Virus record (IMG/VR): IMGVR_UViG_3300009514_000014
Span: 19,956-83,955 of that record
DNA: 64,000 bases
DNA from: a virus
Strand: one strand, 5' to 3'
Shown here: positions 2,294 through 11,551 of the stretch, in pieces
Numbering within the stretch: position 1 is the first letter of the stretch
Layout: each line of letters starts with the position of its first letter
Notes under the pieces: generated by a model
Database searches by the model: none
What the model saw: only the letters and a program-made list of their open reading frames with translations
What the model was told of the DNA's origin: nothing
Program-made: the position numbers and the translations under genes

Positions 2294-2310
2294 ACAACAA
2301 TCACATACCT

Positions 2311-2384
2311 CGGGATGAGGGCTTGATGGTAAGCCGCCTGGTTCGGGGCCAGGAGTTGTGCGAGTTCGACTCTCGCCATCCCGA
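2311..2384 (+). tRNA. tRNA-Pro(CGG)
   Basis: CGGGATG/CATCCCG acceptor; CCTGG-TT CGG GG-CCAGG; GTTCGAC T-loop. Confidence 0.9.
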
Positions 2385-2385
2385 T

Positions 2386-2520
2386 AGAGAGGACCGCAGA
2401 TTTGGATTATCTATTGGAACGGGAAGTCGCAGGTTCAAGTCCTGCTGCGGGCCTAGCCCGTATAGTTCAGTCGGCAGAACGCCCGTCTTGAAACTCCAAG
2501 TCGTTTCCTTTGTTCTCTCT
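2386..2520 (+). ncRNA. Y RNA, YrlA-like #1
   Basis: Terminal stem AGAGAGGAC/GTTCTCTCT with GGACCG..GGATTATC motif; T-arm precedes the loop-closed acceptor stem (GCGGGC-CTA-GCCCGT) and the D-arm. Confidence 0.8.
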
Positions 2521-2528
2521 CGCTTTTT

Positions 2529-2634
2529 GGATGGACCGCTTGTCTTGGGTTATCTGGTTAAGCAGCCGGCTAGTTCGCCGGTAAAGCTAGACGGGTTCAA
2601 ATCTCGTCATCCAAGCAAATTTCTTCGTTCATCC
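2529..2634 (+). ncRNA. Y RNA-like #2 (Ro stem and T-arm, no D-arm)
   Basis: GGATGGAC/GTTCATCC stem; GGACCG..GGGTTATC motif; ACGGG-TTCAAAT-CTCGT T-arm. Confidence 0.7.
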
Positions 2635-2639
2635 ATTTT

Positions 2640-2724
2640 GACCTTGTGGCGGAATAGGTAGACGCGCTAGATTCAGAATCTGGTCCTCGCAACGGGGGTG
2701 AGAGTTCGACTCTCTCCAAGGTCA
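2640..2724 (+). tRNA. tRNA-Leu(CAG)
   Basis: Cloverleaf with long variable arm; CTAGA-TT CAG AA-TCTGG. Confidence 0.92.
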
Positions 2725-2728
2725 CAAC

Positions 2729-3055
2729 ATGAAAAAGAAGAAGAAACCGAAGATGAATCCGGTTTTGACTCTGCGGAAAGCCTGGGTGTCGTTGGTCCGC
2801 ACGCGAATCAAAGCTGAAACTGAATTGCTGCAGGTGCTGGCCGAAATCGGCGAACCGGAGCTCGACGAAGATGGCTTCGACAACTTGCCACGGTTGGACG
2901 ACAACGTCGCAGTGCAGCAGGCTGTGACGTACTTCAGGACGGTGTTTCTGGCGTCACCGGATTCACAAGCAGCGACTGACTTGATCAATCGACTGAATCG
3001 GTCGCATTGGGCTCCTGTGCCGTACAGAGGGACAGGGCGCCTGGTTCAACGTTAG
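2729..3055 (+). CDS. Hypothetical protein
   Basis: Fills the gap between two tRNAs exactly; plausible composition. Confidence 0.6.
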   Translation: MKKKKKPKMNPVLTLRKAWVSLVRTRIKAETELLQVLAEIGEPELDEDGFDNLPRLDDNVAVQQAVTYFRTVFLASPDSQAATDLINRLNRSHWAPVPYRGTGRLVQR

Positions 3056-3056
3056 C

Positions 3057-3128
3057 GCCCGTAAAGCATTGACGGCGATGCGCCGGCCTCGTAAGTCGGG
3101 GAGTCGGGTTCAAGTCCTGATACGGGCT
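3057..3128 (+). tRNA. tRNA-Thr(CGT)
   Basis: GCCCGTA/TACGGGC; CCGGC-CT CGT AA-GTCGG. Confidence 0.88.
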
Positions 3129-3199
3129 CACTACGTTTACGTAGCTCGGCGGTGCTGAGCACGTGATCGTGAGGTGGGGTTTTTAGAGTAAGTTTGTTT

Positions 3200-3272
3200 G
3201 CCCTCGTAGCTCATACGGTAGAGCAGCTGCCTTGTAAGCAGCAGGCGACCAGTTCGAGTCTGGTCGAGGGCT
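3200..3272 (+). tRNA. tRNA-Thr(TGT)
   Basis: GCCCTCG/CGAGGGC; GCTGC-CT TGT AA-GCAGC. Confidence 0.92.
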
Positions 3273-3281
3273 TTTGTAGTA

Positions 3282-3411
3282 TCTCTGGAGAGCTCGGATG
3301 GTCGAGCGCCGTAAACATCCAGCGCGTCTTTTTGTTCATCTTGATGGACCGCTTGTGTTGGGTTATCGCTTTAGGGGCCGGAGGAGGGGGTTCGAATCCC
3401 CCGCCAGAGAA
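3282..3411 (+). ncRNA. Circularly permuted Y RNA #3 (tRNA body with Ro-binding stem replacing the anticodon arm)
   Basis: TCTCTGG/CCAGAGA acceptor; GCTC..GAGC D-arm; Ro-stem strands in reversed order joined by TT (GTTCATC-TT-GATGGACCG..GGGTTATC); GGGGG-TTCGAAT-CCCCC T-arm. Confidence 0.75.
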
Positions 3412-3413
3412 TT

Positions 3414-3546
3414 CGAGGACCGAAAGATTTTGGATTATCCCTGCTAAGGACGAGGCCGCAGGTTCGAATCCTGCACACTCCAAACTGGGGGGTGTTAGCT
3501 CAGCGGTAGAGCACGTAAAACTCCAGAGTCAACTCTCTTGTTCTCG
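3414..3546 (+). ncRNA. Y RNA, YrlA-like #4
   Basis: CGAGGAC/GTTCTCG stem; GGACCGAAAGATTTGGATTATC; T-arm, closed acceptor, then TAGCTCAGCGGTAGAGC D-arm. Confidence 0.8.
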
Positions 3547-3550
3547 ATTT

Positions 3551-3623
3551 GGGTTGCAAGCTCATGAGGAAGAGCGCCCGGCTGTTAACCGGATGGTTTT
3601 GGGTTCGAATCCCAAGCGACCCT
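3551..3623 (+). tRNA. tRNA-Asn(GTT)
   Basis: GGGTTGC/GCGACCC; CCGG-CT GTT AA-CCGG. Confidence 0.88.
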
Positions 3624-3629
3624 CACGTT

Positions 3630-3704
3630 GTCCCTGTCGTCTAGCGCGGCCAAGGATGTCGGCTTCTCACGCCGGAGACACGGGTTCAAATCCCGTCAGG
3701 GACG
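3630..3704 (+). tRNA. tRNA-Glu(CTC)
   Basis: GTCCCTG/CAGGGAC; TCGGC-TT CTC AC-GCCGG. Confidence 0.92.
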
Positions 3705-3708
3705 TACT

Positions 3709-3782
3709 GACCTAGAAGGCGAACTGGTAGAGCCGTCAGCCTTTCAAGCTGAAGATAGCGGGTTCAAGTCCCGTCTAGGTCA
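3709..3782 (+). tRNA. tRNA-Glu(TTC)
   Basis: GACCTAG/CTAGGTC; TCAGC-CT TTC AA-GCTGA. Confidence 0.9.
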
Positions 3783-3801
3783 CTTGCTGAAGGAATGCAC
3801 A

Positions 3802-4131
3802 ATGGCGAAGAAGCCAGTCGTTATCACCATGCGCGTCACCTTTGAGGTCAACCCGCCCGTCAAGGACGCGCTGCCGGAGCTCGTGACGTCTGTCGAGTTG
3901 ACGCCAAAAGATCTCAAGCGCAAGAACGTCGCCGAGCGCGCTGTTCTTAGGCTTCGCAGAGCACTTACCAATGGTGCTGCGGCCTTTGAGATGGTAGGGT
4001 CAGGACTCAACAAGGCGATCCGAGAAGCCATCGGAGCGCAAAAAGGGGAGAAGTCTAAATGCCACACCCAACACAAAGCCACGTCAGACGTCTCGTCAAA
4101 TCCAAAACTGTCGAGCCACCTGCTTGTGTAG
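3802..4131 (+). CDS. Hypothetical protein
   Basis: AAGGA RBS before ATG 3802; the longer ORF-track start overlaps tRNAs. Confidence 0.55.
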   Translation: MAKKPVVITMRVTFEVNPPVKDALPELVTSVELTPKDLKRKNVAERAVLRLRRALTNGAAAFEMVGSGLNKAIREAIGAQKGEKSKCHTQHKATSDVSSNPKLSSHLLV

Positions 4132-4943
4132 TCTCTGGCCTGCAGTTCGAGACGCTGATGGGCTCACATGCCTACGGGGTTTCCACCGACCAGAGCGACG
4201 CAGACATCTACGGATTCTGCACTCCGGAGAAGCAAGACGTCTTCACGCACCTCAAAGGTGTGATCCCCGGCTTTGACAAGCAAGTGGCCAACTTCAAGTT
4301 GTGGCAACAGCCGCATGTCACCTGGCGTCACAACCTTGAGCCGATGTCACCTGGCGTCGCCAAGTTCGATTTCAACATCTACTCGATTATCGAGTTCTTC
4401 AGTCACGCCATGCGTAACACGCCCAACGTGTTGGACTGCTTGTTCGTTCCTGTGGACGTGATCACCTTCCGCACGAAACTCGCCGACATGGTGCTTGAAC
4501 GTCGCAAGCTCTTCTTGCACAAAGGCGCCAAGCATCGCTACCTCGGATTTGCTCACAGTCAGTTGGACAAGATGCGAAAGCTGGCTGCAGAGAACGAAGC
4601 CGAAAAAGGCGAGATAGCGACGTTCAAGCAAAACGCGCGACAGGTCAAGGCACTGAAGCACGCGTACCATGCCGTACGGTTGTGCTTGCAGGTCCGCCAG
4701 TTGCTTGCCGACGGTGACATGCAATTCGTCTTCGCCCAGTACCTACGCGAGATTCGCTCCGCAAAGTACTCGTACGAAGTCATCGTCGAACGTTGCGCGG
4801 AGTTGGAAGTTGAAATCGAAGAACTCTACGCCACCTCCAATGCGGTGCCCTACAAGCCTGACGAGCCTGCGATCAAGGAGCTCCTGCTCAATTGCCTCGA
4901 AGAGGCCTACGGCAGCCTTGACGGCTGCGTGGCACGCAGCTGA
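4059..4943 (+). CDS. Pol-beta-like nucleotidyltransferase (RlaP/YcgL, RNA-repair associated)
   Basis: GSHAYGVSTDQSDADIYG motif; TPNVLDCLF; YLGFAHSQL; KHAYHAVRL. Confidence 0.85.
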   Translation: MPHPTQSHVRRLVKSKTVEPPACVVSGLQFETLMGSHAYGVSTDQSDADIYGFCTPEKQDVFTHLKGVIPGFDKQVANFKLWQQPHVTWRHNLEPMSPGVAKFDFNIYSIIEFFSHAMRNTPNVLDCLFVPVDVITFRTKLADMVLERRKLFLHKGAKHRYLGFAHSQLDKMRKLAAENEAEKGEIATFKQNARQVKALKHAYHAVRLCLQVRQLLADGDMQFVFAQYLREIRSAKYSYEVIVERCAELEVEIEELYATSNAVPYKPDEPAIKELLLNCLEEAYGSLDGCVARS

Positions 4944-5230
4944 TGGCGCCTCTACGACGCTTGATCATCGCCGAGACGGCGTCCAGCACGTGGAGCTACC
5001 ACCTGCGGATCCTTGAGCCCGGTGAAGAACCAAAGTATGGTGGAGGGGCTGGTTTCGCGCTGTGTGGCGCAAAGGTTGGCTGGGACACACAGATGCCAAT
5101 GAGCGCATGGGACAAAAAGGTCGCGCACATTCCAGAGTCTTTTTGCGTTAAGTGCGAGCTAGAAGCCGCAAAGCGAGGATTCACCGTCGCAGCGGCGGCG
5201 GACAGGGAGGAGTCCAGTGGACAAAAGTAG
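4943..5230 (+). CDS. Hypothetical protein with His/Cys metal-binding motif
   Basis: Coupled TGATG start; YH...ALCG...CVKC. Confidence 0.6.
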   Translation: MAPLRRLIIAETASSTWSYHLRILEPGEEPKYGGGAGFALCGAKVGWDTQMPMSAWDKKVAHIPESFCVKCELEAAKRGFTVAAAADREESSGQK

Positions 5231-5588
5231 ACGCGGATTCTTCAAACGGATAGGTCTCGGTGTCGGTGCGGCGGTTGTTGCCGGTTTGCCCGCCAAGGTT
5301 GCCGCAGAACAAGCTCCACGAGTCCTCAAAATCATCAACTGCGTCGAAGGCGCTAACGTAGGCGTGTTCGAACATACCGAAGGGCGCCAATTGTTTCTTG
5401 GCTCCACCGTCTCTGATGGCGTTGTGGATGGCATTGTTGAAGTACCGATGGATGAGCTCGCCGTCCAGACTGTCGTTGTGCGGGTGCGCAAGTGGGGCTA
5501 CGTGCCGTTCAGTCATACTTGTGAGCTGCGCGAGAGCGGGCTCACCATAGTCAGCGCTTACATGCGTCTGGACGAGTTGTTGACCTAA
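5217..5588 (+). CDS. Twin-arginine-signal protein resembling the C-terminal domain of the virion proteins at 35.2 and 38.5 kb
   Basis: GGAGGAG RBS; SRRGFFK plus hydrophobic stretch; VVVRVRKWGYVP..GL..MRLDE. Confidence 0.7.
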   Translation: MDKSRRGFFKRIGLGVGAAVVAGLPAKVAAEQAPRVLKIINCVEGANVGVFEHTEGRQLFLGSTVSDGVVDGIVEVPMDELAVQTVVVRVRKWGYVPFSHTCELRESGLTIVSAYMRLDELLT

Positions 5589-5594
5589 CGTGCT

Positions 5595-5927
5595 ATGCTG
5601 ACACCTAAAGACCAACATTGGTTGACGCTGGCCGGACAGAAAGTTGAGGTAGACCGTTTTGGGTTTCTCATCAGATCGACGGACTGGTCGTTTGCGATTG
5701 CTGAGGCCTTGGCAGTCCTCGAAGCGATCGAGCTCGAACATGCGCACTGGCGGCTCATCAGACTCGTCAGAAAATTCCATCGAGAACGCCATCGAGTGCC
5801 TAGTGTCCGGGAGATCTGTGACGCCGGAGACGTTACCCTCCGACAGCTCTACGATTTGTTTCCACCAACAGTGCTCAAATTGTTTCGCGTCTCGGGAATG
5901 TCAAAGCCGGGTTGCGGAGGTTACTAA
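5595..5927 (+). CDS. TusE/DsrC family sulfur-relay protein
   Basis: VDRFGFL..DW..IAEALA..IEL..HW.LI..VR.F..P..R..LYDLFP..G.SKPGC. Confidence 0.85.
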   Translation: MLTPKDQHWLTLAGQKVEVDRFGFLIRSTDWSFAIAEALAVLEAIELEHAHWRLIRLVRKFHRERHRVPSVREICDAGDVTLRQLYDLFPPTVLKLFRVSGMSKPGCGGY

Positions 5928-5936
5928 ATAGTTTTT

Positions 5937-6301
5937 GGGGATGAAAAGGTTTCGACAGGGATGATCGAAGTGAAAGAGTGCAAGCCGGGGAATGATTGGT
6001 CACCTCGTGAAAAAGACTGGTCAAGTTCAAACGCCAATGACAACGCTTACGCGGAGCCTATGGCTCAAGCTGCCTAGTGCAGCTTCGTCTCGCCACCCCT
6101 CCTGACTGTGACAGGTGGATGAGACGTCATTGAACGGTCTAGGAGCCGGCAGTCCTCGTCGGGTCGGTTCCGAGATGCAGACGAGAAACGAACCGTGTGG
6201 AGCCTGTCGCTGGGCGCTCTCGGGGGTTAAATCAGCGACTAAGCTTGTAGGATCTCTGCATGACGCGTTTCTGGACTCGGGTTCGATTCCCGACTTCTCC
6301 A
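5937..6301 (+). ncRNA. ssrA: tmRNA; tag peptide ANDNAYAEPMAQAA* (6033-6077)
   Basis: 5' GGGGATGAAAAGGTTTCGAC; 3' GACTCGGGTTCGATTCCCGACTTCTCCA; AND..AA tag ORF. Confidence 0.95.
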
Positions 6302-6359
6302 AACCATTGACAAATGCCCCCGATGATTTGGTCTATGAAAAAGGGTGGGCCGGGCGATG

Positions 6360-6815
6360 CTATTCGGCGGATGCGTCCTGAACGTCGGGCGCGTCTGGCT
6401 GCACTGACGTCGGCGGCTCTGAACGATCGTCCGACGAGTCATTCGATTGAGGCGATGATTCAGACGTCTCGGCCGGGATGGGGGATGCCTTGGTACCGTC
6501 TGCCACCTTCGCTAATTGTTCCAGCTGGTGCACCGAGTAAGTCAGGAAATCAGCGGCGATAATCCGCAACACCTCGATACTGACAGGGTTGTGTCCACCC
6601 TTGATGATTTGTGGTTTGCCATCCGGACTCAGTCGCCAGCCTCGTTGCAGCAAGCGACCCGTGAACAGGTCAAAGTTCTTGTCTGCTTCTACCTTCCGCA
6701 GTTGTCGCAGCTCTTGCAGCCATAACGACAGTTGTCGGTGTTCTCGTCCTCGTTCGTCGTCGCTCTCGCCGCCGATTTGTGCGGCGTGATTGATCGCATC
6801 GTTCAAGCTTTTCAT
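6360..6815 (-). CDS. Hypothetical protein
   Basis: GGAGG RBS; AINHA..EHRQLSLWLQELR motif seen in small phage proteins. Confidence 0.65.
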   Translation of the reverse strand: MKSLNDAINHAAQIGGESDDERGREHRQLSLWLQELRQLRKVEADKNFDLFTGRLLQRGWRLSPDGKPQIIKGGHNPVSIEVLRIIAADFLTYSVHQLEQLAKVADGTKASPIPAETSESSPQSNDSSDDRSEPPTSVQPDAPDVQDASAE

Positions 6816-6847
6816 TTTTGTCCTCCGTGGACACACTACTACAATCT

Positions 6848-6920
6848 GCCGGCGAAGCTCAATAGGCAGAGCGCCTGCTTGGTATGCAGGAGGTTATCGG
6901 TTCAATTCCGATCGTCGGCT
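6848..6920 (+). tRNA. tRNA-Thr(GGT)
   Basis: GCCGGCG/CGTCGGC; CCTGC-TT GGT AT-GCAGG. Confidence 0.92.
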
Positions 6921-6986
6921 CTCCGAATTAATGGGGTACTACAATAGGTAAACGAGGTACTTTCGCGATTCGAGTACCGCATTTGT

Positions 6987-7059
6987 AGGGTACGCGCTGG
7001 GTTACGCTCACTGGTCTCCAAAACCGGTTGGATGCGGGGTTCGATTCCCTGGTGCCCTG
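6987..7059 (+). tRNA. tRNA-Trp(CCA), atypical D-arm
   Basis: AGGGTAC/GTGCCCT; CTGGT-CT CCA AA-ACCGG. Confidence 0.75.
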
Positions 7060-7147
7060 TAGTCACCGCAGAGGTGGAGACTGCGAGTTCATGTCGCAGT
7101 GGGACCTCAATGTGCGACGGAGCACTCTGCGCTGTTGGTGGCTTTAT

Positions 7148-7327
7148 GGGCTTGTGGCCGAATGGAACGGCGGCTGTGCCCCTGCGAAGCGAGCGAACCA
7201 GTTGATCATGGGGAGTGGACTTTGCGGGCGGACACCGGGGGCGTCCAATACATTGTTGGACCCAGCAGTGTGGCGGAGATCGCGTCCCTCGCTAATGTGG
7301 TTGCAGGTTCGAATCCTGCCAAGTCCA
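7148..7327 (+). ncRNA. tRNA-shaped RNA with about 110-nt structured insertion at the anticodon
   Basis: GGGCTTG/CAAGTCC acceptor; GCC-GAATGGAAC-GGC D-arm; GCAGG-TTCGAAT-CCTGC T-arm; 180 nt in total. Confidence 0.7.
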
Positions 7328-7332
7328 CTTTT

Positions 7333-7405
7333 GAGTCCATAGCCAAGACGGTAAGGCAGCCGCCTGCAAAGCGGCCAATCCTCGGTTCGATTCCGAGTGG
7401 ACTCT
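7333..7405 (+). tRNA. tRNA-Cys(GCA)
   Basis: GAGTCCA/TGGACTC; GCCGC-CT GCA AA-GCGGC. Confidence 0.92.
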
Positions 7406-7410
7406 CTTTT

Positions 7411-7479
7411 GCTCTGCGGTAAGGATGCCAGGCAGGCCTTCTAAGCTAGCTGTGCCAGGTTCGATTCCTGGGCAGAGTG
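7411..7479 (+). tRNA. tRNA-Arg(TCT), shortened D-arm
   Basis: GCTCTGC/GCAGAGT; loop CT TCT AA; CCAGG-TTCGATT-CCTGG. Confidence 0.65.
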
Positions 7480-7501
7480 AATTCGTGCTACGCTGCGTGA
7501 C

Positions 7502-7723
7502 ATGCATGAGTGGCAAGAGGATTGGAAAGAGCAACCGGGTTGTCGCGGAGACGCCCGACGATGTAGCTGCATATACTGCCATGGCCGACCGTGGGGTTGT
7601 GCGCACTGCTACGTTTGTTCCAGCTGCAAACGCCCCGTCCTGCTGTACGCAGCAGGCCACCCGCAGGGGTTGACACCGATACCGTGCAAATGCGCTGATG
7701 AAAAAGCGCTGATGAGAAAGTGA
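7502..7723 (+). CDS. Small Cys-rich hypothetical protein
   Basis: Several CxxC/CxC motifs; ends 6 nt before the next gene. Confidence 0.45.
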   Translation: MHEWQEDWKEQPGCRGDARRCSCIYCHGRPWGCAHCYVCSSCKRPVLLYAAGHPQGLTPIPCKCADEKALMRK

Positions 7724-7729
7724 ACGTGG

Positions 7730-8011
7730 ATGGCCGACTTTTACACCGACGACGATCTGGACAAGCTCTACAACAGGATTGACACCTTGTTGCGCAGTGG
7801 GGACTTGGACGCCATCAACGAAGAGCTCAGGAAATGCGTTACGCGCATCGACAAGATGTGCGTCATGGAAATGATTGGCTACCTGACAATCACATTTGCT
7901 GCAGCTAAAAACCTCTCGTGTCGACCTCTACTAGTTAACGCCGTGCGCACCGAGATGGCACGACGCGGAATGTCGAACGCAGAGATTGCAGCGGAGCTCT
8001 ACGGATTGTAA
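7730..8011 (+). CDS. Hypothetical protein
   Basis: ORF ends immediately before tRNA-Arg. Confidence 0.65.
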   Translation: MADFYTDDDLDKLYNRIDTLLRSGDLDAINEELRKCVTRIDKMCVMEMIGYLTITFAAAKNLSCRPLLVNAVRTEMARRGMSNAEIAAELYGL

Positions 8012-8012
8012 T

Positions 8013-8086
8013 GGCCTCGTGCCCAAATGGAGAAGGGAACGGTTTCCTAAACCGTCAATGTGCAGGTTCGAGTCCTGCCGAGGTCG
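8013..8086 (+). tRNA. tRNA-Arg(CCT)
   Basis: GGCCTCG/CGAGGTC; ACGGT-TT CCT AA-ACCGT. Confidence 0.92.
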
Positions 8087-8178
8087 AGCGATAATGCCAG
8101 GGCAGCAGCAATGGCTGCGGCTGCCCTGGGCCTAACCGGAGGGCGTGCCTGACCGGCTCTAGGACGCAGAGACAGCCT

Positions 8179-8250
8179 GGGAGTGTAACTCAGTGGAAGA
8201 GTGTTTGCTTTACACGCAAGTGGCCGGAGGTTCGAATCCTCTCACTCCCA
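8179..8250 (+). tRNA. tRNA-Val(TAC)
   Basis: GGGAGTG/CACTCCC; loop TT TAC AC. Confidence 0.9.
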
Positions 8251-8254
8251 TCAT

Positions 8255-8327
8255 GCCGCCATCGTCTAACGGAAAAGGACGCAGGTCTTCGGAACCTGCC
8301 ATGAGGGTTCGAATCCTTCTGGCGGTG
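8255..8327 (+). tRNA. tRNA-Arg(TCG)
   Basis: GCCGCCA/TGGCGGT; CAGGT-CT TCG GA-ACCTG. Confidence 0.88.
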
Positions 8328-8431
8328 ATCAAGAAAAAACGCCCCCCGGTTCTTACCGGGAGGCGTCAGGGGCGATGTGCCCTCCACCATCCACTCGTTC
8401 GCATGAGGGGAACGCACAAGGTATCATCTTT

Positions 8432-8504
8432 GGGTGTGTAGCTCAACCGGAAGAGCGTCTGCGCGACATGCAGAAGGTAGGGGGTTCGACACCCTCCACG
8501 CCCA
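8432..8504 (+). tRNA. tRNA-Val(GAC), C33
   Basis: GGGTGTG/CACGCCC; TCTGC-GC GAC AT-GCAGA. Confidence 0.85.
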
Positions 8505-8517
8505 CTAGGAGCTCGAG

Positions 8518-9135
8518 ATGGCCGTCGACATCAAAGACCAGTACGAAGTAGTCCTAGAGCGGCGTGTAGTGCCCCAGCCGGTGCCAGCACTGTCTGAGGG
8601 TGGTGATTGCGCTGCCTGCGTCTTGGCGGGCGTGACGGGCCTCTCCTTGGAGCTGGTGGTGGCTGAGCTGCTCAACGACAAGGACAGTGTCGGCTACTTC
8701 GATACTCGGACGGCTCTCGAGATTGCGCACAACGAAGGGCTCCTTGATCGTGTCGTCACCGACATGCCCATGTGGGTAGAGCGCATCGGCAAGGCGGCGT
8801 GGGGGCACCCGAGTTGGGCCAACAGCATGGCCTGGTTCGAATATGTGCAGATGGCGATCGATGCAGGCTACTACGCCTTGGCGTCGATCAGCTTTGATGG
8901 CGGTGGCCCGCTCGTCGACACCGATCATGCAGTGCTTATCTGCGGTGTGAAGCAGTGGATAGAACCGCATCCGACAGTGGAAGGCGCCGGTCGCTACATG
9001 CACTCCATACTGGTGAGCTGCAGCGCGAAGAGCTCGCCTGCCGAGTACTGGATCGACGCTGAAAAGTTTCTGACAGAGTTTGGCGGATTCAACGTGATGC
9101 TTGCCCGTCCGGCTAAGCTCTTAAACGGTCGTTGA
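8518..9135 (+). CDS. Putative C39/papain-like cysteine peptidase
   Basis: Q....GGDCAACVLA and DHAVLICG fit Cys/His catalytic motifs; AGGAG RBS. Confidence 0.6.
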   Translation: MAVDIKDQYEVVLERRVVPQPVPALSEGGDCAACVLAGVTGLSLELVVAELLNDKDSVGYFDTRTALEIAHNEGLLDRVVTDMPMWVERIGKAAWGHPSWANSMAWFEYVQMAIDAGYYALASISFDGGGPLVDTDHAVLICGVKQWIEPHPTVEGAGRYMHSILVSCSAKSSPAEYWIDAEKFLTEFGGFNVMLARPAKLLNGR

Positions 9136-9718
9136 GTCGTACGCTCTTTCTGACTGACTGCACGATTCCGTAAGTCGTCAGGATGCCACCAAACACTGCA
9201 ACGGCGACTAAGATGAGCACGAGTTTGTCTTTGCCGTTGCTGTTGTCCCCGCTGAAGAAATCGCCTGTGCGGTCAAAGGCGCCGGGCAGGTGGCGTGCGG
9301 CGGACATCATGTTGTTGATTTGAGCGAAGGTGTTCCAGCCGGTGATCAGCATGTCGGTGCCTGAACGGCGTCTCGCCAGAGCGCGCCACGAGTGGATAGT
9401 GATCGCTAGGCCACTGCCAAGGATGGGGAGGATGATGACGATGTAGCCTAAGTCAGCGAAGGCTTGCAAGGTCTTCGGATCGAGCAGCACGGTTGTGGCT
9501 TTTGTCGCCTCGTCGGTTGTTGTGATGTTGATGCATATGAAACCAAGGATCACCATGTAGCACCAGGTGAATCCGCAAGCGCTCATCGTGCCGCCCATCC
9601 AGTTCATGAAATGAGCGAAGCCGCCCTTTGCCTTGGTGGAGTCCCAAGTATGGCCGACGCCCCAGGCGTTGAAGATTGAAATACTGAGATTGAGCACAAA
9701 GAAAATGAACAAGGTCAT
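9113..9718 (-). CDS. Multi-pass membrane protein
   Basis: Four hydrophobic segments; AGGAGG RBS before ATG 9718. Confidence 0.8.
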   Translation of the reverse strand: MTLFIFFVLNLSISIFNAWGVGHTWDSTKAKGGFAHFMNWMGGTMSACGFTWCYMVILGFICINITTTDEATKATTVLLDPKTLQAFADLGYIVIILPILGSGLAITIHSWRALARRRSGTDMLITGWNTFAQINNMMSAARHLPGAFDRTGDFFSGDNSNGKDKLVLILVAVAVFGGILTTYGIVQSVRKSVRLNDRLRA

Positions 9719-9843
9719 CCCGAAATTTCCTCCTACGGTACGAGGTTGCACTCCTCGTGCCGGTTGTTTTTCAAGTAATGTACACGAGTGCGACAAGAAG
9801 TAATAGGTGCGAATTGCCACTGCGTGGTGACTTACGCCGATAC

Positions 9844-9916
9844 GGCCCCGTGATCTAGATGGATGGGTGCCGCTCTACGAAAGCGGTCTACGCAGGTTCG
9901 AGTCCTGCCGGGGTCA
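9844..9916 (+). tRNA. tRNA-Arg(ACG)
   Basis: GGCCCCG/CGGGGTC; CCGCT-CT ACG AA-AGCGG. Confidence 0.9.
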
Positions 9917-9921
9917 TTTAT

Positions 9922-10005
9922 GCCGAGGTGGCGAAGTTGGTATACGCGCGAGGTTTAGGTTCTCGTGGTCGAAAGACCGTAGGGGTTCGACTCCCCTCCT
10001 CGGTA
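9922..10005 (+). tRNA. tRNA-Leu(TAG)
   Basis: Long variable arm; CGAGG-TT TAG GT-TCTCG. Confidence 0.92.
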
Positions 10006-10008
10006 CTT

Positions 10009-10080
10009 GGTGGTAGGGAGGAATAGGATCCTCATCGGTCTCATACGCCGTGAAAGCCAGTTCGATTCTGGATACCACCA
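10009..10080 (+). tRNA. tRNA-Met/Ile2(CAT)
   Basis: GGTGGTA/TACCACC; loop CT CAT AC. Confidence 0.8.
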
Positions 10081-10085
10081 CTCGT

Positions 10086-10160
10086 GTCGGAGTGACGGGA
10101 AGTGGCATACCTACTGGATTTAAAATCCGGTGAGTGGGGGTTCGACTCCCCCCTCCGATA
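10086..10160 (+). tRNA. tRNA-Leu(TAA), short variable loop
   Basis: GTCGGAG/CTCCGAT; CTGGA-TT TAA AA-TCCGG. Confidence 0.85.
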
Positions 10161-10162
10161 AA

Positions 10163-10236
10163 CGGGATGTGGCCCAATCTGGTAGGGCGTTCGGCTGGGG
10201 GCCGAAAGATTGCTGGTTCAAATCCAGTCGTCCCGA
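10163..10236 (+). tRNA. tRNA-Pro(GGG)
   Basis: CGGGATG/CGTCCCG; TTCGG-CT GGG GG-CCGAA. Confidence 0.92.
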
Positions 10237-10246
10237 TGATAGATTC

Positions 10247-10330
10247 GACCAGGTGGCGGAACTGGTAGACGCAGCAGTCTGAGAGGCTGCCGGCAGAAAT
10301 GCCGTGGGGGTTCGACTCCCCCTCTGGTCA
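10247..10330 (+). tRNA. tRNA-Leu(GAG)
   Basis: GCAGT-CT GAG AG-GCTGC; long variable arm. Confidence 0.9.
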
Positions 10331-10331
10331 A

Positions 10332-10535
10332 ATGAGAGTAACGAAACAAGATACGACAGAGATCTTGCGTCTCGTCAAACGTATCAGAAGAGATAGTGCA
10401 TCGGCACACCATATCCGTTATGATGACGACCGAGGTCATCTCTGGACGATCAAAAATGCCCAGGAAGAAGAGCTCGGCGTCGCGTGGTTCGGCGCCGATG
10501 GAGGCCCACACTTTAGTGTAACGAGAGCTCCATGA
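10332..10535 (+). CDS. Hypothetical protein
   Basis: ATG right after the tRNA; ATGA overlap with the next ORF. Confidence 0.5.
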   Translation: MRVTKQDTTEILRLVKRIRRDSASAHHIRYDDDRGHLWTIKNAQEEELGVAWFGADGGPHFSVTRAP

Positions 10536-10714
10536 ACAAGATAACCTTGGAAACCGTAGACGGTGACTTTGTCAGCTTGGCGCAAATTCCACCGTATAAA
10601 GAACTGCCGGGTGTCGTGATATGGGGCCAGCGCTATTTTGTGCTGCATTCTATCAACGAAGGACGACCCGCGTTCCGCGAGACATTTTTGGCTGTTGCGA
10701 CAACATTGGATTGA
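10532..10714 (+). CDS. Hypothetical protein
   Basis: Coupled start; ends at the next tRNA. Confidence 0.55.
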   Translation: MNKITLETVDGDFVSLAQIPPYKELPGVVIWGQRYFVLHSINEGRPAFRETFLAVATTLD

Positions 10715-10799
10715 GGCAAAGTGGCGGAATTGGCATACGCGCTGGGTTCAAAACCCGGTGGTCCTTGTGACCGTGGGGGTTCGAGTCCCCCCTTTGCTA
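10715..10799 (+). tRNA. tRNA-Leu(CAA)
   Basis: CTGGG-TT CAA AA-CCCGG; long variable arm. Confidence 0.92.
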
Positions 10800-10903
10800 T
10801 CGAAACGTGACCATGATCGACTAACCCATTGCCCGAGAACCGTCTCGGGCGAGGAGCCGCAACAATGAACTGGCCTCAACAGTAGAGGACCCCGAGGTGC
10901 ACC

Positions 10904-11407
10904 ATGCGAACACTAGTACTCACGAATGGCTATGAGCCCATCAACACTACCTCTTGGCGACGAGCATTGAAGATGCTCACGTTGGGGAAATGTGAAGTCG
11001 TGGAGACCTACGATCGCAAGATCCGCACATCGCATGTTGCGGTGAAGATGCCAGCCGTCATTCGCTTGGTCCACACCATCGTAAAGCGAAAGCAACGTAT
11101 CAAGTACGGCAAGCTCAGCATCTTCGCTCGAGACCGTTGGACTTGCCAGTACTGCGGTCAAGAGAAGAACATCAACGAGCTGACAAGAGATCATGTCCTC
11201 CCTAAGGCACAGGGTGGACGGAGCAACTGGGAAAACGTTGTCGCCGCTTGCCAAACTTGCAACGCGGACAAAGGCAACCGAACCCCGCAACAGGCGGGCA
11301 TGGCGCTTTTGACGAAGCCACGCAAGCCGACATGGATTCCGCTGTTGACGGTGCGCATCGGCCGTGCTGCAATGCCGCCACCGTGGAAGCCGTATTGCTA
11401 CTCATAA
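10904..11407 (+). CDS. HNH endonuclease (McrA-like)
   Basis: LVL..GYEP N-terminus; IFARD..CQYCG..TRDHV.P..GG..WEN.V.AC..CN..K. Confidence 0.92.
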   Translation: MRTLVLTNGYEPINTTSWRRALKMLTLGKCEVVETYDRKIRTSHVAVKMPAVIRLVHTIVKRKQRIKYGKLSIFARDRWTCQYCGQEKNINELTRDHVLPKAQGGRSNWENVVAACQTCNADKGNRTPQQAGMALLTKPRKPTWIPLLTVRIGRAAMPPPWKPYCYS

Positions 11408-11416
11408 GTCTCGCAC

Positions 11417-11451
11417 CCCCACCCGGAAATACCGGGTGGGGATTTCTTTTT
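11417..11451 (+). terminator. Intrinsic terminator
   Basis: CCCCACCCGG-AAATA-CCGGGTGGGG followed by ATTTCTTTTT. Confidence 0.75.
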
Positions 11452-11538
11452 GGAGAGGCTGGGAATTGGTGATCCTCACGGTCTTGAAAACCGCAGGCAG
11501 CGGAAGCCGCCTTGAGGGTTCAAATCCCTCTCTCTCCG
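11452..11538 (+). tRNA. tRNA-Ser(TGA)
   Basis: GGAGAGG/TCTCTCC; loop CT TGA AA; long variable arm. Confidence 0.9.
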
Positions 11539-11551
11539 TAGGAGCAATCGA

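Follow-up and report, generated by a model that had tools for sequence, protein, structure and literature searches.

A candidate tRNA-shaped Y RNA in a phage tRNA array, with a Ro60-module hairpin in place of the anticodon arm

YrlA, a bacterial Y RNA (Chen et al. 2014, PMC4201824; structure: Wang et al. 2018, 10.1101/312249), is described as a tRNA in circularly permuted form whose acceptor is closed. Y RNAs carry the motif GNCGAA(N)G in the 5' strand of their Ro module (PMC4201824). In M. smegmatis, RNase P cleaves YrlA, which has a 7-bp acceptor, and CCA is added in vivo (PMC4201824). Matches overlapping annotated tRNA genes were dropped from the YrlA survey of 2014 (PMC4201824). Wang et al. 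2018 speculated that some YrlAs might be processed into a canonical-tRNA-like form, and a dimeric-tRNA model for the origin of Y RNAs is cited in the same work (10.1101/312249).

Key reviews and the original b7a-tRNA description aside, the literature search returned no description of a form encoded as such in a genome, with normal order and closed Ro stem, and Rfam 15 holds no family for tRNA-shaped, hairpin-closed Y RNAs. The literature search agrees with the initial annotation of the DNA analysed here, which knew of no described example, with the processing speculation of Wang et al. 2018 (10.1101/312249) as a qualification.

The window, meaning the whole stretch that was analysed, comprises the final 64 kb of the 83,955-bp IMG/VR virus record IMGVR_UViG_3300009514_000014, which is approximately 50% complete. 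At a probability of about 0.7, positions 3282-3411 are considered to be the gene for a tRNA-shaped Y RNA in which a Ro60-module hairpin of approximately 77 nt takes the place of the anticodon arm, with processing and Ro60 binding as predicted properties.

The element and its setting in the tRNA array

The array that contains the element spans 2300-11540 and is made up of + strand genes for 21 tRNAs and a tmRNA. Across the phage, at least five wirings are represented among eight Y-like RNAs; an RlaP gene, the tmRNA and approximately 40 tRNAs are also present. The neighbours of the element referred to below are as follows.

2386..2520, + strand: Y1, in canonical YrlA order (weak RF02553 match)
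2528..2637, + strand: Y2, a Ro stem with an anticodon-arm-like hairpin and a T arm (fold)
3200..3272, + strand: complete tRNA-Thr(UGU), 9 nt upstream of the element
~3413..3546, + strand: Y3, a paralogue in canonical YrlA order (partial match to the Rfam YrlA model, 31.3 bits, and fold)
4059..4943, + strand: RlaP-family nucleotidyltransferase, associated with RNA repair (Pfam PF10127, E 1.4e-17)

Y3 begins 2 nt downstream of the element and has a Ro 5' strand of its own. No promoter-like or terminator-like sites separating the array genes were found; given this and a spacing of 1-9 nt, the array is most likely one transcript cut by tRNA-processing enzymes. The Y RNAs sit 0-9 nt from the flanking tRNAs (window 2310-2640 and 3200-3624), with Y1 abutting the end of a tRNA-Pro and Y2 stopping 2-3 nt short of a tRNA-Leu. 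Their ends may be set by processing of the neighbouring tRNAs, in the manner of tRNA punctuation.

Read from 3282 to 3411, the element runs from the acceptor 5' strand through the D arm, Ro 3' strand, loop, Ro 5' strand and T arm to the acceptor 3' strand. The parts were assigned as listed here; the class, and the covariance models R1 (whole element) and R2 (module only), are described further below.

3282..3288, + strand: acceptor stem 5' strand TCTCTGG (7/7 Watson-Crick pairs with CCAGAGA at 3404-3410)
3289..3291, + strand: linker AGA, of 3 nt and not 2, at the position of U8-A9 in tRNAs and in the class consensus (GUAGCUC)
3292..3307, + strand: D arm, GCTC / GGATGGTC / GAGC (sequence and fold)
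3309..3339, + strand: Y module 3' strand, aligning to the 3' halves of Y3 and Y1 and lying inside the R2 match at 3309-3385
3340..3343, + strand: closing loop CUUG (minimum-free-energy fold; class loops are mostly 3-6 nt)
3344..3367, + strand: Y module 5' strand, 24/25 identical to the strand at 2530-2554, bearing out the near-identity with the RNA at 2530 that was first noted
3368..3385, + strand: connector or variable region, 18 nt between GGGUUAUC and the T arm (17-18 nt in Y1 and Y3)
3386..3402, + strand: T arm, GGGGG / TTCGAAT / CCCCC (sequence and fold; the only native part matched by Rfam models)
3403..3411, + strand: extra G3403, acceptor 3' strand CCAGAGA at 3404-3410 and discriminator-like A3411 (sequence and fold)

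The acceptor can also be drawn in a second register, 3283-3289 with 3403-3409, which contains one A.G mismatch (R1 alignment) and in which T3282 becomes position -1. The ends that had been placed at 3282 and 3411 are ambiguous by 1 nt, being 3282 or 3283 and 3410 or 3411. No CCA is encoded in the element. The D loop GGAUGGUC includes GG, and an alternative drawing of the arm has a 6-bp stem and a 4-nt loop; its stem, GCUC/GAGC, is the most frequent D stem of the class. A single G separates the D arm from the Y module 3' strand. The T loop, UUCGAAU, is canonical. In other respects the tRNA core is atypical: its linker has 3 nt, U8 is missing, as are the A14 and A21 of normal tRNAs, and a surplus G precedes the acceptor 3' strand.

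The hairpin that replaces the anticodon arm is bulged, approximately 77 nt long, and contains both strands of a Y-RNA helix. Its 3' strand comprises the CCGUAAAC motif, the upper-stem strand AUCCAG, a pyrimidine-rich internal-loop strand and the Ro-type helix strand GUUCAU. The 5' strand comprises AUGGAC, the bulged C3350, G3351 (in a G.U pair), then CUUGUGUU and GGGUUAUC. In the hairpin, GGAC, the bulged C and G pair with UUGUUC, with GGGUUAUC in addition. The 3' strand of the helix ends in ...CATCCAGCGCGTCTTTTTGTTCATC, alternatively written ...TTTTTGTTCATC, and is followed by TT and then by GATGGACCGCTTGTGTTGGGTTATC. The strand order given in the initial annotation (3' before 5') was retained; the TT loop given there was replaced by an effective loop of CUUG, with one extra unpaired base on each side. 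Candidates for pairing in the connector are CCG 3309-3311 with CGG 3379-3381, or UAAA with UUUA.

The minimum-free-energy fold of the element is a cloverleaf with a long bulged hairpin, in which the helices are intact (acceptor 7/7, T 5/5, D 4-6 and Ro 6 pairs). The energy z-score of this fold is -0.42, which is ordinary for the composition, so thermodynamics alone provides no evidence. Sequence and fold agree in placing the hairpin between a D arm and a T arm within an open acceptor stem (TCTCTGG/CCAGAGA), as had been proposed.

The tRNA-like acceptor, D and T arms would also be accounted for if an intron-like insertion in a tRNA gene were excised to leave a decoding tRNA, and phage tRNAs with insertions exist (L140:16825-16946). 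This is extremely improbable here. The element has no anticodon loop and no intron-type junction, it is called neither by ARAGORN nor by the Rfam tRNA model, and what is inserted is a conserved Y module, unlike the variable sequence of an intron.

The element is a circular-permutation relative of the phage's own canonical YrlA-type RNAs

The helix GGAC-(bulged C)-G / YGUUC is present in eight elements of the record, each of them on the + strand and within the tRNA array. The terminal pairs of this helix vary yet stay complementary (GAGGAC/GUUCUC, GAUGGAC/GUUCAUC and GACGGAC/GUUCGUC). Y1 and Y3 follow the published YrlA order of Ro 5' strand, T arm, loop-closed acceptor, D arm and Ro 3' strand; their RF02553 scores are 33.6 and 31.3 bits, under the gathering score of 69. 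The remaining Y-like elements have wirings other than that of Y1 and Y3.

Permutation was assessed by alignment and folding in Python. Positions 3343-3410 were joined to 3282-3340 and scores were compared with 1000 shuffles. The re-permuted sequence aligned with Y3 from end to end (score 91 vs 39.7 +/- 5.4 shuffled, z 9.5) and was colinear with Y1 (z 6.4). The native order gave z 1.9 (Y3) and 0.1 (Y1). With a 4-nt linker the re-permuted RNA measures 131 nt, compared with 131 nt for Y3 and 129 nt for Y1. It folds as a canonical YrlA, with a terminal Ro stem, upper stem, T arm, acceptor hairpin and D arm. Native 3260-3430 gave no match to the YrlA (RF02553) or tRNA (RF00005) models even at E <= 10; for the YrlA model a full-length match had not been expected.

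A canonical reading of the native DNA is impossible, because a complete tRNA-Thr lies upstream and Y3, with its own Ro 5' strand, lies downstream. Two candidates of this kind were rejected. The end of an upstream canonical Y RNA as the first half of the element was ruled out by the complete tRNA-Thr at 3200-3272, and a junction of two tandem canonical YrlAs is impossible with that tRNA on one side and the Y3 5' strand on the other. The element is a circular-permutation relative of the phage's own canonical YrlA-type RNAs. The reciprocal permutation of a YrlA-type Y RNA proposed in the initial annotation is upheld by the colinearity of the re-permuted sequence with Y1 and Y3, by the impossibility of a canonical reading, and by the recurrence of the design with covariation, described below.

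The Ro strands of the element are closest to those of its own paralogues Y2 and Ya (near-identical). The element may therefore stem from local permutation or gene conversion, not from Ro60-adjacent descent. Another reading is an evolutionary by-product without a function of its own, in which a canonical Y RNA was duplicated in tandem and the outer halves were lost, so that a 3' half came to be followed directly by a 5' half. Circular permutations usually arise by tandem duplication, the near-identity to Y2 and Ya points to a possibly recent event, and the tRNA core shows degeneracy; in Gordonia phage Cashline the design is mimicked by canonical YrlAs in tandem. Such an origin is nevertheless judged very unlikely. 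Every helix is intact in the fold, both deletion end points must hit the ends of the acceptor stem exactly, and the design is kept with compensatory changes in many Ro60 loci, singletons included.

Further wirings were seen elsewhere in the phage. A complete tRNA in normal order, called by ARAGORN with an 8-nt anticodon loop and the anticodon 'tagc', lies within a Ro-type terminal stem (GACGGACC.../...CUUGUUCGUC) at L129:1535-1663 (genome 13369-13497, before the window); the Ro stem is at the acceptor end, as in Yrn1. A further Ro-type stem, at L128:1287-1435 (genome 17481-17629, also before the window), surrounds a body resembling tRNA-Trp(CCA). In this RNA the acceptor 5' strand, GGGGGAG, forms a perfect, loop-closed pairing with CUCCCCC upstream of it, which would add a point of permutation, located between T arm and acceptor 3' strand. 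Window positions 7148-7326 (+ strand) comprise a 179-nt tRNA-shaped RNA with intact acceptor, D and T arms (R1 37 bits) and a branched insert of approximately 110 nt replacing the anticodon arm, with no Ro motif.

A recurrent, covarying RNA class beside Ro60 genes

The neighbouring RlaP gene served as the starting point for a survey that reached 80 phage loci. Ro60 is encoded in 9/50 phage records bearing an RlaP homologue, often tens of kb from RlaP. Just upstream of these Ro60 genes, the Rfam tRNA model gave full-length matches spanning 118-131 nt (41-46 bits). These are tRNAs with a Y module in place of the anticodon arm.

A set of 80 phage Ro60 loci was then scanned with a simple script selecting acceptor, D and T pairing, and model R1 was built from 24 Ro60-adjacent elements, with the element of the window left out. 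R1 gave 36 matches of at least 51 bits in 26/80 phage Ro60 loci, mostly 20-1300 nt upstream of the gene, and matches in 14/41 bacterial Ro60 loci; in both sets all were on the Ro60 strand. Bacterial carriers include an Isosphaeraceae chromosome, Polyangiaceae, an Anaeromyxobacter MAG and Myxococcota MAGs. The modules closest to that of the window element belong to Myxococcota MAGs (L431, L432), and examples of class members that have Ro60 as a neighbour are L368:2727-2848 and L349:2650-2774. In a control of 1.47 Mb of phage DNA without a nearby Ro60, R1 gave one match longer than 100 nt (L140:16825-16946), which was identified as a tRNA with an anticodon-loop insertion of approximately 55 nt and no Ro motif.

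At seven class loci a single T loop is present within 400 nt on either side, so those elements cannot be tandem-YrlA junctions. The R1 match in Gordonia phage Cashline is the junction of tandem canonical YrlAs. Canonical YrlA was also found in Mycobacteriophage Bxz1. Cashline carries two tandem canonical YrlAs (L405:2820-3100) and Bxz1 three Y RNAs (L404:2569-2925), in both cases upstream of genes for a 'Ro-like RNA binding protein', and none of these RNAs has a GenBank feature.

In the covariation analysis 97.2% of cells were paired and the score was 0.825, vs 0.232 for shuffled alignments and at most 0.153 for slid partners; the alignment was model-fitted, acceptor, D and T pairing had been pre-selected by the script, and the values refer to the Ro60-adjacent class, not to orthologues of the window locus. 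The Ro helix, which had no part in the selection, is 84.8% paired with compensatory changes. It has a conserved U.G beside the bulged C, with compensatory changes in the pairs that follow. Compensatory change is strong in all four helices of the class. N-CCA is encoded after the acceptor in 4/34 class members, vs approximately 0.5 expected. Next to the Ro60 genes of phages and bacteria, and on their strand, the design recurs as an RNA class with covarying helices.

When R1 was applied to the 64-kb window, 3283-3409 was the top match (51.4 bits, E ~1e-9, model positions 1-124). Divergent members outside the training set score 51-86 bits under this model, and ordinary tRNAs together with a tRNA carrying an unrelated insert score 37-52 bits (ordinary tRNAs up to approximately 45). 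Because R1 includes the tRNA body, ordinary tRNAs reach 37-45 bits, and the module-only model R2 was built for this reason; the margin of the element over tRNAs under R1 rests on a weak module score. With R2, 3309-3385 was the sole match in 76 kb of the genome (18.5 bits, E 0.04, weak), and the 1.47-Mb control gave no match at E <= 10. Members outside the training set score 15-47 bits with R2, which places the element, at the low end of this range, as a divergent member. A chance origin of the element was ruled out by the E-values and controls. R2 matches outside tRNA-shaped elements were also recorded in Ro60 loci (L385:514-586, L362:2590-2668, L340:2733-2908 and L444:2600-2676); these may be stand-alone hairpin Y RNAs or canonical junctions.

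The class hairpin features present in the element are the U.G, the bulged C, a 4-6-bp short-loop helix, and the GGUUAUC and AAAC motifs. It differs from the class consensus in having GGAC/GUUC for GGGC/GCCC and CCGCUUG for CCGAA. Class members reach 41-46 bits with the Rfam tRNA model; the element is unmatched at E <= 10. The 5' strand of its module reads GGACCGCUUG and not the GNCGAA(N)G motif, and Y3 has CCGAAAG; some Ro60-adjacent class members likewise read CCGCUUGG. The class, as defined from Ro60 loci, lies on the Ro60 strand within approximately 2 kb of Ro60, and no Ro60 gene is present in the approximately 50%-complete record of the element. The element is a divergent member of an apparently undescribed, widespread YrlA-type Y RNA variant.

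Genes for Ro60 (TROVE), DUF2828 and RtcB were searched for across the 83,955 bp of the approximately 50%-complete record and none was found. The co-occurrence of RlaP and Ro60 in 9/50 records makes a Ro60 gene in the missing half of the genome plausible.

Close relatives of the locus were searched for in several collections. Comparison of 2300-3800 with GenBank phages (megablast and blastn) gave tRNA-level matches only. Closed-hairpin DNA patterns gave at least 119 chance matches in viral contigs, none of which passed the filters, and a second pattern gave 3 chance matches. The 5'-strand pattern gave 4 chance matches and no homologue in metagenome contigs. Y motifs were absent within 10 kb in RlaP-homologue loci, single-protein searches (tail-fibre, RlaP and OMP-decarboxylase genes) gave no useful related loci, and in 50 portal relatives the Y 5'-strand pattern was no commoner than its control. 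No close homologue of the element was found in the phage, viral and metagenome collections searched.

The closest relative with a syntenic tRNA array has 58% portal identity. At the syntenic place this relative (record G004) has four tRNA-like RNAs with other variable-region inserts of approximately 65 nt; its RF02553 matches were dimeric-tRNA artefacts. The four RNAs (L304:225-1101, minus strand) lie downstream of tRNA-Thr(UGU) and have AGCCUACAAGU in common before the T arm, and one insert forms a perfect GGGUCCGA/UCGGACCC hairpin.

A function that does not depend on Ro60 was also considered. The helix shared by the eight Y-like RNAs could bind another protein or aid processing or stability, with the tRNA shell acting mainly as a source of RNase P and RNase Z sites, by which the array would be punctuated and the ends of the adjacent Y RNAs set. 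No Ro60 gene was found in the record (approximately 50% complete) or in the closest relatives, packing is very tight (Y1 directly after tRNA-Pro, Y3 2 nt past the element), and no promoter-like or terminator-like site lies between the genes. A second tRNA shell with unrelated cargo is present at 7148-7326, and the syntenic tRNA-like RNAs of the closest relative carry other inserts. A Ro60-independent function is nevertheless considered unlikely: the motifs of the hairpin (the helix with U.G and bulged C, GGGUUAUC and AAAC) match those of RNAs beside Ro60 in dozens of loci, and the record is no more than about 50% complete.

Proposed maturation and origin, and comparison with known systems

The preferred reading remains that of a tRNA-shaped Y RNA, for which the following maturation is proposed. 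Like the tRNAs around it, the element would be excised from a polycistronic transcript of the array. Its 5' end, at 3282 or 3283, would be produced by RNase P, and a 3' cut following 3410 or 3411 would at the same time release the start of Y3. Addition of CCA to the 3' end may follow, and the processed element would fold into an L shape. Indirect support for such processing comes from the RNase P cleavage and CCA extension of M. smegmatis YrlA (PMC4201824) and from the N-CCA encoded by 4/34 class members. The hairpin of the element is predicted, from the identity of its motifs with those of Ro60-adjacent RNAs, to bind Ro60/Rsr, which would be encoded either by the host or in the half of the phage genome absent from the record. 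The tRNA-like head, with a free acceptor end, may engage a tRNA-recognising effector (RNA repair or decay enzymes), as has been proposed for YrlA.

The element is a plausible candidate for an intermediate between tRNA and Y RNA. In a tandem of tRNA-shaped units, the YrlA order is obtained by starting at the Ro 5' strand of the first unit and stopping after the Ro 3' strand of the second, and both topologies are found side by side in the window phage. Normal-order, hairpin-closed Y RNAs might tentatively be regarded as a distinct and widespread form of Ro60 partner, perhaps ancestral, in which a tRNA acquired a hairpin and tandem duplication then led to YrlA; this wider proposal is possible and is put forward with some doubt.

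Were the preferred reading correct, the Ro60-binding module would work as an internal hairpin, independent of the 5' and 3' ends of the RNA itself. A concrete route from tRNA to Y RNA would also be available, with a hairpin grafted on the anticodon arm followed by tandem-duplication permutation, which would refine the dimeric-tRNA model cited in 10.1101/312249. The presence of tRNA termini on Y RNAs raises the questions of CCA addition, of aminoacylation and of which tRNA-binding effector reaches Ro60. For annotation, RNAs of this class are missed or are matched by the tRNA model only. The Y-like RNAs of the phage, together with RlaP, the tmRNA and the tRNAs, point to an RNA-repair or counter-defence kit that may use host Ro60.

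Engineered tRNA scaffolds are laboratory constructs in which cargo in the anticodon arm is tolerated and which are matured by tRNA enzymes. The element, by comparison, would be a natural non-decoding RNA with a protein-binding hairpin. The permuted tRNA genes of algae and archaea likewise interconvert tRNA and permuted forms and, unlike the element, yield decoding tRNAs (10.1101/312249). The Band-7-associated b7a-tRNA predicted by Burroughs and Aravind 2016 is, like the element, a normal-order tRNA-like RNA of RNA-repair loci and is occasionally found beside Rsr; in the parts of that account consulted it is described as strongly resembling an authentic tRNA, and a Ro module is not mentioned (10.1101/312249).

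D. radiodurans Yrn1 shares tRNA-like elements with the D arm before the T arm; in Yrn1 the Ro stem replaces the acceptor and an anticodon-like arm is present, whereas in the element the Ro module replaces the anticodon arm (PMC4201824). YrlA (RF02553) shares the Ro60-binding stem at the position of the anticodon stem and a tRNA-like domain with T, D and acceptor-like stems. It differs in that the element has its ends at the acceptor, D before T and a loop-closed Ro stem, and is not matched natively by RF02553. YrlA and other Y RNAs lie within a few kb of Ro60/Rsr, whereas no Ro60 gene is near the element in the record. A cleaved YrlA resembles the element in its open 7-bp acceptor stem and tRNA-type ends. 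It is a two-piece RNA in which the Ro stem is also open, whereas the element is one piece, has a closed Ro stem, and is encoded in that form.
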